Source: Escherichia coli
GTDB taxonomy: Bacteria > Pseudomonadota > Gammaproteobacteria > Enterobacterales > Enterobacteriaceae
DNA: 64,000 bases
Reading direction: 5' to 3' (one strand)
NCBI RefSeq assembly: GCF_017348835.2
Contig: NZ_CP071375.1
Below, piece after piece: positions 6,893-48,730 of the stretch (positions are counted from its first letter, which is position 1; every line of letters begins with the position of its first letter). The position numbers and the translations under genes were made by a program. Under the pieces are notes generated by a model. The model saw only the letters and a program-made list of their open reading frames with translations, was not told the origin of the DNA and ran no database searches.

Positions 6893-8389
6893 TTAATCCT
6901 CTCGGGCAAAAAGTGCCTCTATAAAGTCGTCCGCCTTAAACGGACGCAAATCCTCAATACGTTCGCCGACACCAATGTAGCGGATAGGGATACCAAACTG
7001 GTCAGCCACCGAGAAAATTACCCCGCCTTTCGCCGTGCCGTCCAGTTTCGTTAGCGTGATGCCGGTTAAGCCAACAGCTTCGTGGAACAGTTTGGCCTGG
7101 CTTACCGCGTTCTGCCCGGTGCTGGCATCAATAGTCAGCATAACTTCATGCGGCGCTTCAACGTCGAGTTTCTTCATCACGCGGACGATTTTCTTCAACT
7201 CTTCCATCAGATGCGATTTGTTCTGCAGACGTCCGGCGGTATCGGCAATCAGGACGTCGATATTACGCGCTTTAGCTGCCTGAATGGCGTCGAAGATAAC
7301 AGAGGCGGAATCCGCACCGGTATGCTGGGCAATCACCGGAATATTGTTGCGCTGACCCCAGACCTGAAGCTGTTCAACCGCTGCTGCACGGAAAGTATCG
7401 CCCGCCGCCAGCATCACCGATTTACCCTGCTGCTCAAACTGACGCGCCAGCTTACCAATCGTCGTGGTTTTACCCACACCGTTGACGCCCACCATCAGGA
7501 TCACGAACGGCGTTTTACCTTCAACATTCAGCGGCTCATCGACTTTCGCCAGAATCTCGCCCATCTCTTCTTTCAGCAGGCCATAGAGCGCCTCGGCATC
7601 ACGAAGCTGCTTGCGGGATGCGCCTTCCGTCAGATTGGTGATAATTTTACGTGTGGTTTCCACGCCCACATCGGCGATCAACAGCTGTTCTTCCAGCTCT
7701 TCAAAAAGATCATCGTCGATTTTTTTACCGCGGAACAGGCTGATAAATCCGGAACCGAGATTTTCTTTGGTTTTTAACAGGCTGCGTTTCAGGCGCGCGA
7801 AAAAACCTTCTTTGGTTGGTTTTTCCTGCTCCTGAGCGATTTCTTCCACCGGCTGCTCTTCTTCTGCCGGAGGAACCACTATCACCGCTTCTTCTGCCGC
7901 TTCGGCAGCCAGCGCCTGTGCTTCCAGCTCTTCGTCGGTGATTTCTTCTTTAGCCGCTTCTTCTTCCGCCACTTCGACAATCTCTACGGTTTCCGCTTCA
8001 GCCTGCCACTCTTCTGGCGAAACCTCTTCGGCGTTGACGTCTTCCGGCAACGGCAGCTCTTCACGTTCGATAGCCACTGGCTCCGGCGTTTCTTCTACGA
8101 CCGGTTCCGGCTGTGCAACGACTTCCGCTTCAGGCTGCGCTTTTTCACTTTCAGCAACCTGTTCAGTGACTTCCACAACGTCGGCAGCAAAAGTTTCCGC
8201 CTCGGCTTCAGTATGCGCCTGCGGCTGCTCTTCAACGGCGTGTTCAGAAGCCTTCACAGGCTCTTGCGCCTGAACGATTTCTTCTACAACCGGTTGTTCA
8301 TTCTGAACTTCTGTCTCTTTTTCCGGGGTCTGCTCTTTTTGACCAAAGCCCAGCCAGGAAAAAAAGCCACGTTTTTTTTCTTTCGCCAT
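6893..8389 (-). CDS. ftsY: Signal recognition particle receptor FtsY
   Basis: 498-aa ORF with acidic N-terminal domain and C-terminal SRP GTPase domain (GVNGVGKTT); operon ftsYEX. Confidence 0.95.
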   Translation of the reverse strand: MAKEKKRGFFSWLGFGQKEQTPEKETEVQNEQPVVEEIVQAQEPVKASEHAVEEQPQAHTEAEAETFAADVVEVTEQVAESEKAQPEAEVVAQPEPVVEETPEPVAIEREELPLPEDVNAEEVSPEEWQAEAETVEIVEVAEEEAAKEEITDEELEAQALAAEAAEEAVIVVPPAEEEQPVEEIAQEQEKPTKEGFFARLKRSLLKTKENLGSGFISLFRGKKIDDDLFEELEEQLLIADVGVETTRKIITNLTEGASRKQLRDAEALYGLLKEEMGEILAKVDEPLNVEGKTPFVILMVGVNGVGKTTTIGKLARQFEQQGKSVMLAAGDTFRAAAVEQLQVWGQRNNIPVIAQHTGADSASVIFDAIQAAKARNIDVLIADTAGRLQNKSHLMEELKKIVRVMKKLDVEAPHEVMLTIDASTGQNAVSQAKLFHEAVGLTGITLTKLDGTAKGGVIFSVADQFGIPIRYIGVGERIEDLRPFKADDFIEALFARED

Positions 8390-44949: not shown

Positions 44950-46302
44950 ATGACTAAACACTATGATTACATCGCCATCGGCGGCGGCAGCGGCGGTATC
45001 GCCTCCATCAACCGCGCGGCTATGTACGGCCAGAAATGCGCGCTGATTGAAGCCAAAGAGCTGGGCGGCACCTGCGTGAATGTTGGCTGCGTGCCGAAAA
45101 AAGTGATGTGGCACGCGGCGCAAATCCGTGAAGCGATCCATATGTACGGCCCGGATTATGGTTTTGATACCACTATCAATAAATTCAACTGGGAAACGTT
45201 GATCGCCAGCCGTACCGCCTATATCGACCGTATTCATACTTCCTATGAAAACGTGCTCGGTAAAAATAACGTTGATGTAATCAAAGGCTTTGCCCGCTTC
45301 GTTGATGCCAAAACGCTGGAGGTAAACGGCGAAACCATCACGGCCGATCATATTCTGATCGCCACAGGCGGTCGCCCGAGCCACCCGGATATTCCGGGCG
45401 TGGAATACGGTATTGATTCCGATGGTTTCTTTGCCCTTCCTGCTTTGCCAGAGCGCGTGGCGGTTGTTGGTGCGGGTTACATCGCCGTTGAACTGGCGGG
45501 CGTGATTAACGGCCTCGGCGCGAAAACGCATCTGTTTGTGCGTAAACATGCGCCGCTGCGCAGCTTCGACCCGATGATCTCTGAAACGCTGGTCGAAGTG
45601 ATGAACGCCGAAGGCCCGCAGTTGCACACCAACGCCATCCCGAAAGCGGTAGTGAAAAATGCCGATGGTAGCCTGACGCTGGAGCTGGAAGATGGTCGCG
45701 GTGAAACGGTGGATTGCCTGATTTGGGCGATTGGTCGCGAGCCTGCCAATGACAACATCAACCTCGAAGCCGCTGGCGTTAAAACCAACGAAAAAGGCTA
45801 TATCGTCGTCGATAAATATCAAAACACCAACGTTGAAGGTATTTACGCAGTGGGTGATAACACGGGTGCAGTGGAACTGACACCGGTAGCAGTTGCAGCG
45901 GGTCGCCGTCTCTCTGAACGCCTGTTTAATAACAAGCCGGATGAGCATCTGGATTACAGCAACATTCCGACCGTGGTCTTCAGCCATCCGCCGATTGGTA
46001 CTGTTGGTTTAACGGAACCGCAGGCGCGCGAGCAGTACGGCGACGATCAGGTGAAAGTGTATAAATCCTCTTTCACCGCGATGTATACCGCCGTCACCAC
46101 TCACCGCCAGCCGTGCCGCATGAAGCTGGTATGCGTTGGACCGGAAGAGAAGATTGTCGGTATTCACGGCATTGGCTTTGGTATGGACGAAATGTTGCAG
46201 GGCTTCGCGGTGGCGCTGAAGATGGGTGCAACCAAAAAAGACTTCGACAATACCGTCGCCATTCACCCAACGGCGGCAGAAGAGTTCGTGACAATGCGTT
46301 AA
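44950..46302 (+). CDS. gor: Glutathione reductase Gor, 450 aa
   Basis: 450-aa ORF with FAD motif GGGSGG and redox-active [13 protein letters not shown]. Confidence 0.95.
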
Positions 46303-46308
46303 ATGTTA

Positions 46309-46339
46309 AAGGGCTAAGAGTAGTGTGCTCTTAGCCCTT
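46309..46339. terminator. Hairpin between convergent gor and dinQ
   Basis: AAGGGCTAAGAG-tagtgtg-CTCTTAGCCCTT perfect 12-bp stem. Confidence 0.5.
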
Positions 46340-46355
46340 AATTACGTTTCCGCTA

Positions 46356-46439
46356 TCAGTTCAGAAGCTGAAGCAGAAAGCGGATCAGTTCCAGCAGCGC
46401 AATTAACGCCCCAAGAACGATGATTGCTTTATCAATCAC
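46356..46439 (-). CDS. dinQ: DinQ, 27-aa SOS-inducible membrane toxin peptide (type I TA-like, regulated by agrAB antisense RNAs), GTG start
   Basis: Minus strand 46439..46356 translates (V/M)IDKAIIVLGALIALLELIRFLLQLLN*; too short for the ORF track; position after gor. Confidence 0.8.
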   Translation of the reverse strand: MIDKAIIVLGALIALLELIRFLLQLLN

Positions 46440-46632
46440 CCGTTTTCTCCATGCGATGGAGTGAGAATGCATCCGCTTACTCATCCACTGCCTGTCACGG
46501 CGCATGTCTCATTGTTAGATAAGAACTCTCTCACTCCGGCCAGAGCATCAGTTAACGGCACCACCCGTACTTCTGACCAGGACTTTGAAAGCGTTTATGC
46601 GCATTACCAGAGTGAAAATGCCTCAGAGCTAA

Positions 46633-46648
46633 CTGGATAATCATACAG
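46633..46648 (-). promoter_or_regulatory. LexA box (CTG-N10-CAG) of the dinQ promoter
   Basis: aaCTGGATAATCATACAGta, about 195 bp upstream of dinQ; TATAAC -10-like hexamer immediately upstream on the minus strand. Confidence 0.6.
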
Positions 46649-46678
46649 TACATTCAGGTTATAAAACCAGCATGTCCT

Positions 46679-47771
46679 GTGTAAGTTCACAGAGATATTG
46701 CAATTGCCTCCGGATAAGTAAGGGGAGATTGCACTATGCAAATGCAGCATCTGATGGTTGGCTATCCTAAGTACTACCAAACGGCCGATTATGCGTTGAG
46801 GCTTTCAGTGATGGCTGATATAGCAACAATGAGAATGAAGGCTCTGCACTTCTGGGATAAACACGGTATTTCTGCAGCTTCTGAAGCCTTTGGCGTGTCC
46901 TGCCGCACGCTTTACTGGTGGCGTCAGTTACTGAACAAGGAAGGACCTGAGGGGCTAATCCCGCACAGTAAGGCACCTCTGGTGCGACGAAAAAAACACT
47001 GGCATCCCGATGTGCTGAAAGAGATTCGACGCCTCAGGACAGAGCTGCCGAACCTCGGTAAAGAGCAGATTTTTGTTCGCCTGAAGCCCTGGTGCGAACA
47101 GCGCTATCTGGCCTGTCCGAGTGTTTCCACCATCGGCAGAATGATCGCTGCCGCACATGATAAAATGCGGATGATACCTGTGCGTCTGGGATCGCGGGGG
47201 AAGGCACTGCTTGTCAAAAAGCGGTCTGCCAAACCCCGCAGGCCAAAGCACTACCGCCCGGTAAAGACAGGTGAGCTCATTGGGATGGACGCCATTGAGC
47301 TCAGAATGGGCGAACTGCGTCGCTATGTCATCACCATGATCGACGAATGCAGCAATTACGCGCTGGCGCTGGCTGTGCCGTCACTCAACAGTGATATCGT
47401 CAATCACTTCTTCAGCCGCGCAGCCCGGTTGTTCCCGGTCGGTATCAGCCAGATAATCACAGATAACGGAAAAGAGTTCCTGGGAAACTTCGACAAAACG
47501 CTGCAGGAAGCCGCTATCAAACACCTCTGGACCTATCCCTACACGCCAAAAATGAACGCTATCTGTGAACGTTTTAACCGGACGTTAAGAGAGCAGTTTA
47601 TTGAATTTAATGAGATTTTACTCTTTGAAGATCTGGCGCTATTTAACCAGAAGCTGGCGGAATATCTGGTGCTGTATAACAGCAAAAGACCCCACAAGGC
47701 GCTCGCACTAATGACGCCCGTGGAATATATTTTAAAAGAGAATAAAAATTGCAATATGTGGTGGACCCATA
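46679..47771 (+). mobile_element. IS481-family insertion sequence (~1.09 kb) with imperfect terminal inverted repeats and 8-bp target-site duplication CATGTCCT
   Basis: CATGTCCT at 46671-46678 and 47772-47779; termini GTGTAAGTTCACAGAGATATTGCAATT and AATTGCAATATGTGGTGGACCCATA are inverted; single rve/DDE transposase fills the element; boundaries uncertain by ~10 bp. Confidence 0.7.
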
Positions 47772-47818
47772 CATGTCCTTGCAATAGTTTCAGTATGGTA
47801 TTAGCATTGATGCGTTAG
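46736..47818 (+). CDS. IS481-family DDE (rve) transposase, 360 aa; last ~15 codons are read from the target duplication and flanking DNA
   Basis: 360-aa ORF with N-terminal HTH region and integrase core (ITDNGKEF, YTPKMNAICERFNRTL); stop codon lies 47 bp beyond the inferred right end. Confidence 0.8.
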   Translation: MQMQHLMVGYPKYYQTADYALRLSVMADIATMRMKALHFWDKHGISAASEAFGVSCRTLYWWRQLLNKEGPEGLIPHSKAPLVRRKKHWHPDVLKEIRRLRTELPNLGKEQIFVRLKPWCEQRYLACPSVSTIGRMIAAAHDKMRMIPVRLGSRGKALLVKKRSAKPRRPKHYRPVKTGELIGMDAIELRMGELRRYVITMIDECSNYALALAVPSLNSDIVNHFFSRAARLFPVGISQIITDNGKEFLGNFDKTLQEAAIKHLWTYPYTPKMNAICERFNRTLREQFIEFNEILLFEDLALFNQKLAEYLVLYNSKRPHKALALMTPVEYILKENKNCNMWWTHTCPCNSFSMVLALMR

Positions 47819-47897
47819 ATGATGGCATTCTCACTCCAGCCAGAGCCACCAACTCTGGGCTGCAAAGTAAAAAACCGACGCAAAGTCGGTTTTTTTA
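47815..47897 (+). ncRNA. agrA: agrA-like small antisense RNA of the dinQ locus (approximate ends)
   Basis: TTGCAA-N17-TAGCAT promoter-like pair, CTCACTCCAGCCAGAGCC segment matching the dinQ leader, terminator hairpin ACCGACGCAAAGTCGGT plus T7. Confidence 0.5.
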
Positions 47898-48044
47898 CAT
47901 CCGGATTCGGACAAGGCTTAATATGACGATGACCCAGTGAAAGTATATAAATCGTCACTGCGATATATACCGAAGTGCCCCCTCCGCCAGCTGAAGAAAT
48001 CGCTAATTCTTGCAATGTTAGCCACTGGCTAATAGTATTGAGCT

Positions 48045-48127
48045 GTTAGATAAGAGCTCTCTCACTCCAGCCAGAGCCACCAACTCAGGGCTGGAAAGTA
48101 AAAAACCGACGCAAAGTCGGTTTTTTT
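48045..48127 (+). ncRNA. agrB: agrB-like small antisense RNA, second copy (approximate ends)
   Basis: Near-identical second copy with TTGCAA-N17-TAGTAT promoter-like pair and the same terminator. Confidence 0.5.
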
Positions 48128-48159
48128 ACGTCCTGATTCAGACCTCCTTTCAAATGAAT

Positions 48160-48240
48160 AGCCAACTCAAAATTCACACCTATTACCTTCCTCTGCACCT
48201 ACGCATTCGTTAAACCATATATGTTTTTGACTTATCCGCT
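48160..48240 (+). promoter_or_regulatory. Probable ars operon promoter/operator remnant, now directly upstream of a short arsB tail and arsC
   Basis: Sequence with TTGACT at 48227-48232 where arsR would be expected; no arsR or arsB ORF follows; identity with the K-12 ars promoter is from memory and unverified. Confidence 0.3.
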
Positions 48241-48241
48241 T

Positions 48242-48292
48242 TGGTTTGTAACGCTGGCTGCGCTGGCGCTACGTCTCTCTTTCACTTTGTAA
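48242..48292 (+). pseudogene. Possible 3'-terminal remnant of arsB (16 codons, WFVTLAALALRLSFTL*)
   Basis: Short hydrophobic frame ending 12 bp before arsC ATG, the position where arsB normally ends; no upstream arsB body. Confidence 0.3.
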
Positions 48293-48304
48293 TGAGATAC
48301 TGAT

Positions 48305-48730
48305 ATGAGCAACATTACCATTTATCACAACCCAGCCTGCGGCACATCGCGTAATACGCTGGAGATGATCCGCAACAGCGGTACAGAACCGACCATTATC
48401 CATTATCTGGAAACACCACCAACGCGCGATGAACTGGTAAAACTCATTGCCGATATGGGGATTACCGTACGCGCGCTGCTGCGTAAAAACGTCGAGCCGT
48501 ATGAGGAACTGGGCCTTGCGGAAGATAAATTTACTGACGAGCGGTTAATCGACTTTATGCTTCAGCACCCGATTCTGATTAACCGTCCGATTGTGGTGAC
48601 GCCGCTGGGAACTCGCCTATGCCGCCCCTCGGAAGTGGTGCTGGAAATTCTGCCAGATGCGCAAAAAGGCGCGTTCTCCAAGGAAGATGGCGAGAAAGTG
48701 GTTGATGAAGCGGGTAAGCGGTTGAAATAA
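48305..48730 (+). CDS. arsC: Arsenate reductase ArsC (glutaredoxin-dependent), 141 aa
   Basis: 141-aa ORF MSNITIYHNPACGTSRNTLEMIRNSG with catalytic Cys12. Confidence 0.95.
   Translation: MSNITIYHNPACGTSRNTLEMIRNSGTEPTIIHYLETPPTRDELVKLIADMGITVRALLRKNVEPYEELGLAEDKFTDERLIDFMLQHPILINRPIVVTPLGTRLCRPSEVVLEILPDAQKGAFSKEDGEKVVDEAGKRLK

Follow-up and report, generated by a model that had tools for sequence, protein, structure and literature searches.

An IS481-family insertion sequence at the upstream edge of the agrA promoter in Escherichia coli, and a proposed preference for sigma70-type promoters

Between the toxin gene dinQ and the small-RNA gene agrA, in a 64,000-nucleotide stretch of an Escherichia coli genome (assembly GCF_017348835.2, contig NZ_CP071375.1; hereafter the window, meaning this whole stretch), lies an insertion sequence (IS) of the IS481 family whose right tip falls at -41 of agrA and whose transposase gene is co-oriented with agrA. 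The locus raises the question of why the element stands at this very base pair and in this orientation. Comparison of the DNA next to its copies suggests an answer: the geometry at agrA probably reflects an intrinsic, oriented preference of the element for the upstream edge of sigma70-type promoters, of the form N5, TTGnnn, 17 bp, TAnnnT. The copy in the window thereby points to a rule according to which a widespread enterobacterial IS and its relative ISKpn28 insert with base-pair precision, and co-oriented, just upstream of -35 hexamers.

Promoters to the right of the element

At all of the first 11 E. coli loci, most of them next to the gene of a type I toxin (hokA, hokD, another hok/gef gene, ldr, and the dinQ-like gene of strain E2348/69), TTGnnn stands directly to the right of a 5-bp target duplication. 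Right junctions were gathered by an exact search for the 21-nt right tip, which gave 41 loci in viral contigs and 120 in metagenome contigs; together with the copies in E. coli genomes they make up 178 junctions, which reduce to 90 distinct flanks and 58 clusters, hence 58 non-redundant representatives. Among these representatives, the first five flank positions after the tip are uninformative; T at position 6, T at 7 and G at 8 are each found in 42/58, and positions 29-34 read T-A-a-a-n-T. The complete TTG begins exactly at +6 in 31 of the 58, most other offsets having 0-3 occurrences and the highest of them 7 (at +39). Read as sequence, this flank logo is a sigma70 promoter with a 17-bp spacer, and the orientation of the element relative to the promoter is identical in all insertions. 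The left flanks of the collected copies showed no motif, and a scan of genome contigs for the 17-nt right tip returned only chance matches in unrelated metagenome-assembled genomes.

The signal persists once sok-like flanks are excluded: TTG is found at +6 in 23/50 flanks, against a background of 1.6% (p about 4e-28), and TAnnnT follows at 16-18 bp in 11 of these 23 TTG sites, against 3.4% of the 2,050 TTGs in the window that served as controls (p about 6e-11). Where the duplication is perfect, TTG follows in 20/21 insertions and TTT in the remaining one. At 15 dereplicated validated sites, the A2 and T6 of the -10 hexamer occur at exactly 17-bp spacing in 14, and a stricter -10 test is passed by 8/15, compared with 3.2% of intergenic-like TTGs (p about 6e-9). 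Copies resembling ISKpn28 (74-75% identical) that have valid 5-bp duplications also lie at N5-TTG, in hok/sok and STnc100 loci.

The promoters occupied are above all constitutive ones that drive small RNAs, whether type I antitoxins or others, and include those of agrA, an agr-like RNA (dql), rdlD, sok and STnc100. Distance and orientation relative to the transcription starts are fixed, the tip lying at -41/-42 of agrA, rdlD and the agr-like RNA. In Rfam matches, rdlD starts 41 nt past the IS tip and the agrA and agr-like RNAs each start 42 nt past it, while STnc100, a phage small RNA, and sok lie directly past the tip.

The agrA site itself has been hit repeatedly. The IS occupies this exact position in 7/5,426 complete E. 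coli genomes of differing backgrounds, in which the ars operon is either intact or deleted and the flanks differ at 4-12 of 300 positions left of the IS. The insertion reads TGTCC|IS|TGTCC in the window and in strains FWSEC0007 and 377323_2f, and CGTCC|IS|CGTCC at the same site in strain IAL7255; the two alleles of the duplication indicate that this base pair has been hit independently at least twice, in the same orientation each time. The empty intergenic region between dinQ and ars is 901 bp long and holds 25 TTGs.

At hok and ldr loci, 13-15 bp separate the toxin start codon from the IS on its upstream side (hokD in loci L006, L009, L011 and L014; hokA in L007 and L013; ldr in L005), and the hokD duplication, TCTCC, corresponds on the opposite strand to GGAGA, the Shine-Dalgarno sequence of hok. 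Such an insertion severs the toxin open reading frame (ORF) from its promoter, and from mok at hok loci, and spares the promoter of the antitoxin, which may explain the persistence of these insertions. One of the hokA copies (L013) belongs to PE164, the strain that matches the window.

Several other loci deserve description in their own right. In E2348/69 (NC_011601, 486508-488203), the dinQ-like gene dql lies by mnmH and is accompanied by an AgrB-family RNA with the promoter TTGAAT-17-TATAAT; the same IS is found at -42 of this agr-like RNA, with the duplication GCTGT. Many phage and prophage contigs carry an ISKpn28-like copy, with the duplication GAGCA or GAGTA, directly upstream of TTGAAA-17-TAAATT, and Rfam assigns the sequence past the tip to STnc100 (loci L024, at 7107-7313, and L025, also L016, L026-L029, L033-L037 and others). 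The STnc100 promoter is thus a recurrent small-RNA target outside toxin-antitoxin systems. As regards sok, the match of the Rfam model of that name (RF01794, 157 nt) is to the hok mRNA leader strand (L006, 1391-1557; L007, 1391-1535) and not to the strand transcribed from the TTGCCT-17-TAACCT promoter; the model seems to cover the hok-leader strand or a region longer than Sok RNA.

The element, its duplication and its open-ended transposase gene

The ends of the element, TGTGTAAG...CCCATACA, form imperfect TGT...ACA inverted repeats with matches at 19 of 26 positions, and ATATTGCAATT is present in both repeats about 20 nt from the tips. Its boundaries are identical to the base pair across copies; 11 other E. 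coli copies all start with TGTG and end with ATACA. The transposase matches HTH_32/HTH_28 (residues 40-136), rve (179-271) and rve_3 (261-328) in Pfam, and motif inspection within the rve match, rather than structure alignment, gives D185, D243 and E279 (spacing 58 and 36) as candidate catalytic residues. The best NCBIfam family is IS481 (NF033577, 221.4 bits; curated cut-off 224), far ahead of the next, IS3 (98 bits), and the identical protein WP_001178364.1 is named IS481 family transposase in RefSeq. The structure agrees with that family: a single HTH plus rve ORF without programmed frameshift, TGT/ACA repeats, a length within about 1-1.3 kb and a short duplication. PMC10045372, citing ISfinder, gives a range of 2-15 bp for target duplications in the IS481 family, most of them being of 6 bp.

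The closest named relative is ISKpn28, which is equal in length, has 74-75% DNA identity over the 1,096 bp and shares the same 21-nt right tip. Identity with ISKpn28, or status as an isoform of it, was rejected on the grounds that isoforms normally share at least 90-95% identity; going by sequence, the element is a distinct IS of ISKpn28's subgroup. It is also widespread. Among the matches listed, dozens of E. coli chromosomes and plasmids contain copies 100% identical over all 1,096 bp; the best match reaches at least 99% identity in 146 records, and the exact transposase protein is found on 59 contigs. Of 5,426 complete E. coli genomes, 1,419 have some match to the element, with up to 38 places in a single genome. 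Genomes IAL7255 (NZ_CM130730), RM14723 and UTME-10/-14 have 14-38 places that match the IS, numbers that point to recent bursts and hence to the insertion sets least filtered by selection. The best explanation is that the element is an active IS of the IS481 family and that the copy in the window is a simple transposition product.

A copy of about 93% identity (1,085 bp in locus L058) resides on many E. coli plasmids of the ColV/IncF type (L058, L071, L072, L081 and others); its first base is A and not T, it has no duplication, and its right flank, CAGCAAACGCA..., is without TTG. This copy is apparently the decayed remnant of an old insertion that has been passed on with the plasmid backbone.

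The empty site, AGCACGTCCTTGCAAT, is found without the element in K-12 and E. coli 042, where the uninterrupted sequence reads ...AACCAGCACGTCCTTGCAAT..., and the reconstructed T-allele empty site, AGCATGTCCTTGCAAT, matches at 65/65 positions in the genomes listed, with 2,567 records in the band of at least 99% identity. Uninterrupted sequence in other genomes makes the insertion a clean gain. An assembly artefact was rejected in view of the clean empty sites, the locus-specific duplications and the occurrence in seven complete genomes. The initial annotation of the window had described an IS481-family element that entered the divergent dinQ/agrA control region by a discrete transposition event, and had proposed a comparison with an uninterrupted locus; family, event and empty site (K-12, 042 and the T-allele genomes) are all borne out.

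The size of the duplication had to be revised. The repeat of 8 bp first described does exist literally, since the 8-mer CATGTCCT occurs at 46671-46678 and 47772-47779, but as a target duplication it does not hold: it consists of a central TGTCC and extra bases, of which CA comes from the right tip of the IS and T is both the first base of the IS and the first T of TTGCAA. An 8-bp duplication was rejected in favour of 5 bp given the CGTCC allele of IAL7255 and the 5-bp flank repeats at other copies (CTGTG, TCTCC, CTGAG, GCTGT, AACGC and others). A perfect 5-bp duplication flanks 21 of 41 unique complete copies from all sources, and three more have one mismatch. With these limits, TTGCAA (47779-47784) directly abuts the duplication and does not lie one base from the junction, as had been thought. 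A duplication of 6 bp (NNNNNT) is a formally possible alternative, as the next target base is nearly always a T, which is also the first base of the IS; among the collected copies, none of the validated insertions for which both junctions are available was found at a site without this T.

The transposase ORF has no stop codon inside the IS. In the window it continues for 45 bp beyond the right end, through 14 codons and a TAG (47816-47818), so that it crosses the agrA promoter and stops at agrA +3 to +5. The overrun, and the dependence of the transposase C-terminus on the insertion site, had been recognized from the outset, with slightly different figures (47 bp, about 15 codons). The frame at the right tip is ...ACA|NNN|NNT|TGN in all copies. 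A -35 hexamer that starts with TTGA therefore supplies an in-frame TGA two codons past the tip, and one that starts with TTGC or TTGT supplies a cysteine codon; the tail, which depends on the site, is then longer, at 9-24 or more codons (14 in the window). At tail position 3, 6/7 protein tails from the 2,164-member cluster of this transposase show Cys or a stop, as TTG at +6 predicts. An ORF end supplied by the target also accounts for the varied lengths of the protein and for the pseudogene calls 'missing C-terminus' in RefSeq, where the labels are inconsistent ('IS481 family transposase', 'integrase core domain-containing protein', and pseudogene).

Choice of the target

The copy in the window entered by simple transposition, through a staggered cut of 5 bp at -41/-36 of agrA, and the flanks show an oriented preference of the subgroup for the upstream edge of sigma70 promoters. 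The proposed mechanism is that this preference would be exerted at integration and not by selection alone. The transpososome would either read TTG directly or dock on promoter-bound RNA polymerase holoenzyme. On the one hand, direct readout by the HTH of the transposase fits the presence of a TTGCAA motif in both repeats. On the other hand, docking on the holoenzyme is in keeping with the -10 signal, with a spacing held strictly at 17 bp and with the bias towards small-RNA promoters that are strong and constitutive. As a tentative proposal, somewhat less likely than not, the transposase may be guided by promoter-bound sigma70 holoenzyme (for example by sigma region 4 or alpha at the class II activator position) and integrate at -41 of occupied promoters; this would parallel, in bacteria, the targeting of Ty3 to Pol III promoters, and would allow the element to neutralize type I toxin genes and spare their antitoxin RNAs.

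Several observations weigh against an intrinsic preference for promoter edges or limit its scope. The evidence consists of standing insertions alone, which selection has already filtered. Many of the occupied sites are homologous sok promoters, so that the independent promoter families among the validated sites number about 8, 6 of them with a good -10. About a third of the right flanks are without TTG, and specificity is thus not absolute. ISKpn28 has been reported inside mgrB, at +91, under colistin selection (PMC6101004). As to family, the NCBIfam score for IS481 is slightly below the curated cut-off. Most of the non-TTG flanks belong to copies without a duplication, and for many of them a single junction is available; such duplication-less copies are probably rearranged, as exemplified by an ISKpn28 copy on a Klebsiella plasmid whose left flank is a hok site and whose right flank has been replaced.

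Selection is also the basis of the strongest rival explanation, which we consider unlikely: the transposase would read a short N5-TTG or nothing at all, genic insertions would be purged, and those upstream of promoters or in dispensable toxin loci would persist, so that the -10 and the excess of small RNAs would reflect survivorship. All observations being of standing insertions, this reading has its place; moreover, insertion in hok or ldr cuts the toxin gene from its promoter and should be harmless or beneficial, and ATATTGCAATT in both repeats about 20 nt from the tips means that the HTH plausibly binds TTGCAA-like DNA, which is the -35 of agrA. However, a -10 at the right spacing accompanies 3-7% of intergenic-like TTGs, as opposed to 8-14 of the 15 validated sites, and the spacing is almost always exactly 17 bp. 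The flanks around the target TTG are also unlike the repeat motif (ATA before, CAATT after), and the same one of the 25 TTGs between dinQ and ars has been hit at least twice.

Two simpler rationales for the target were examined and rejected. The target is not a mimic of the repeat motif ATATTGCAATT, with which flank positions 3-5 and 9-13 mismatch. Nor does a promoter at the junction of a hypothetical IS circle provide a rationale: for a candidate -10, TAAGTT, in the left repeat, the right repeat offers no plausible -35 at 16-18 bp when the junction is of 0-5 bp.

The initial annotation had offered a different account, which now appears improbable. According to it, the insertion is untargeted, with an 8-bp duplication, and creates a hybrid dinQ promoter in which TTACAC from the IS end is combined over 15 bp with TATAAC, altering expression of DinQ and AgrA relative to K-12. 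Both hexamers are indeed present at that spacing, and the upstream DNA has been replaced beyond -45 of dinQ and -41 of agrA, so that the claim that the shared upstream region was replaced stands for that DNA. It fails for the promoter elements themselves, both native core promoters and the LexA operators being intact. The full-length dinQ RNA is 331 nt long, with the landmarks G1..C14, U44..G56 and A287..U331 (PMC5066626), and 46633 on the minus strand is the sole start that fits all of them. This +1 assigns the -10 to TATGAT, within the LexA box, and places TATAAC in the region of the -35 and second operator; the duplication is of 5 bp and a 15-bp spacer is suboptimal.

That the IS merely travels with toxin-antitoxin loci, or is copied between them by homologous recombination, is highly improbable: sok-type flanks are mutually homologous and several duplication-less copies share a left flank with other loci (for example L057 with L147/L150), which does reveal recombination between copies, but there is no homology among the rdlD, agr, sok, STnc100 and plasmid targets, each locus has its own perfect 5-bp duplication, clean empty sites exist, and the element begins and ends at the same base pair in every copy.

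An intrinsic preference for promoter edges has partial parallels in known systems. ISKpn28, of the IS481 family in Klebsiella, has the same HTH plus rve transposase, likewise open through the right end; the literature searched on it reports its presence or its disruption of mgrB, and no target preference. The Bordetella prototypes IS481 and IS1002 resemble the window element in their single DDE ORF, TGT...ACA termini, length of about 1 kb and short duplication; their insertion at NCTAGN gives duplications of 6 bp, and outward promoters are a known feature of theirs, but they are not known to insert at a fixed distance from host promoters. In IS870 of Agrobacterium, the stop codon of the transposase is supplied by the target, CTAG. 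The ORF of the window element is also without internal stop and ends in target DNA, but here the stop near the tip is optional and the target is a promoter element instead of CTAG. In yeasts, the long terminal repeat retrotransposons Ty3 (directed to Pol III starts via TFIIIB) and Tf1 (directed to Pol II promoters) are tethered to transcription factors and reach gene-sparing 'safe havens'. They too integrate at a fixed, base-pair-scale distance upstream of transcription starts; unlike the present case, in which tethering to bacterial RNA polymerase is proposed, they are eukaryotic and their tethering has been demonstrated. Finally, IS150 and IS186 occupy hok loci of K-12, and IS1 and IS5 activate bgl, flhDC and glpFK. 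These elements, too, are found repeatedly within type I toxin-antitoxin loci or ahead of promoters, but their insertions are regional, or downstream of hok, with no single position or orientation relative to a -35.

In the full-text literature searched, which leaves most subscription journals outside its scope, no description was found of promoter or antitoxin-RNA targeting by this element or by ISKpn28, nor of such targeting at toxin-antitoxin loci. The targeting behaviour is apparently undescribed, in the sense that it was not found in the searched literature, ISfinder lying outside that scope. Membership in the IS481 family is itself known, and the RefSeq annotation is ordinary. If the preference is intrinsic, it would be a way of selecting targets that is new among bacterial DDE transposases and a natural 'safe-haven' strategy, and would offer a simple system for studying how a transpososome reads a promoter or RNA polymerase. 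It would also constitute a mechanism that repeatedly orphans antitoxin small RNAs, with hok and ldr toxin genes cut from their promoters. In practice, the 40 bp to the right of any copy would be a candidate promoter, and the variable C-termini of the transposase would be explained. The insertion in the window is a clear instance of such promoter-edge targeting and deserves experimental follow-up.

The dinQ/agrAB locus

Positions 46300-48300 of the window are 100% identical to the E. coli pig strain PE164. The genes lie in the order gor (+), dinQ (-), the 1,096-bp insertion, agrA, agrB and arsC (Table 1), and the locus has the components of the dinQ/agrAB type I toxin-antitoxin system: a DinQ ORF, a LexA operator and two AgrB-family RNAs between gor and ars. 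The Rfam match for agrA spans 47815-47898 (100.3 bits), and the start of this RNA is the G at 47814.

Table 1. Features around the insertion, with positions in the window.
Feature	Positions	Strand	Basis
gor (gorA), glutathione reductase, left neighbour	44950-46302	+	ORF; RefSeq annotation of identical PE164 locus
dinQ coding sequence, 27-aa DinQ toxin, GTG start	46356-46439	-	RefSeq WP_001295215.1 in identical locus; PMC3567139
dinQ mRNA segment complementary to AgrA/AgrB (agr repeat)	46514-46546	-	direct repeat with 47814-47846; PMC3567139
Strong LexA operator, CTGTATGATTATCCAG, holding dinQ +1 (46633) and -10 TATGAT (46640-46645)	46633-46648	-	sequence
Probable weak second LexA operator and dinQ -35 region, CTGGTTTTATAACCTG, includes TATAAC	46655-46670 (approximate)	-	inferred from sequence and PMC3567139
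Left target-site duplication, TGTCC, 5 bp	46673-46677	.	empty sites; other copies; IAL7255
IS481-family insertion sequence, 1,096 bp	46678-47773	+	100%-identical copies; boundaries from 41 complete copies
Left inverted repeat, TGTGTAAGTTCACAGAGATATTGCAATT	46678-46705	+	aligned with right repeat
Transposase ORF, 360 aa, HTH N-terminus and rve core	46736-47818	+	ORF list; profile matches
Right inverted repeat, ending ...GTGGTGGACCCATACA	47747-47773	+	same 21-nt tip in ISKpn28-like relatives
Right target-site duplication, TGTCC, agrA -40 to -36	47774-47778	.	other copies; IAL7255
agrA core promoter: -35 TTGCAA (47779-47784), 17-bp spacer, -10 TAGCAT (47802-47807)	47779-47807	+	sequence
agrA small RNA, start GUUAGAU, terminator 47869-47895	47814-47898	+	Rfam; inverted repeat
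agrB small RNA, intact	48046-48129	+	Rfam AgrB-family match, 108.1 bits

The IS begins at -45 of dinQ and, on the other side, the duplication occupies -40 to -36 of agrA, so that the core promoters of both genes and the LexA operators are intact. What has changed is the DNA upstream of the two promoters (-42 and beyond), which has been swapped for the ends of the IS, and the distance between these formerly back-to-back promoters, which are now 1.1 kb apart. According to PMC3567139, the dinQ promoter overlaps both LexA operators, and the agrA and agrB RNAs have consensus-like promoters and an identical start sequence. The agrB promoter indeed has the same architecture as that of agrA (TTGCAA-17-TAGTAT, 48010-48038), with the same start sequence. 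A consensus promoter and terminator scanner detected neither of them, as both score 8/12 and fall below its threshold; the same scanner found no strong promoter inside the IS.

The core promoters of dinQ and agrA and both LexA operators would remain functional after the insertion, whose effect on DinQ, as far as the sequence allows a prediction, is probably small given that agrB is intact. PMC3567139 describes AgrB as the antisense RNA particularly important for holding down the translationally active +44 dinQ transcript. The expected effects are modest at most: loss of upstream sequences, and loss of any mutual occlusion between the two polymerases. Transcription and translation of the transposase gene would cross the agrA promoter as far as the stop at agrA +3 to +5, with the agrA terminator downstream, and read-through transcripts that end at this terminator and include the agrA antisense segment are possible. 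The geometry at dinQ differs from that at hok and ldr, as agrA lies upstream of the dinQ promoter and the toxin gene keeps both its promoter and its LexA control.

To the right of agrB, the window has lost arsR and nearly all of arsB (48228-48305). The sequence is K-12-like until ...GACTTATCCGCTT (about 48240) and continues with the final 50 nt or so of arsB and then arsC (48305-48730). Other strains that carry the IS at the same agrA site, such as that of locus L188, have retained arsR.

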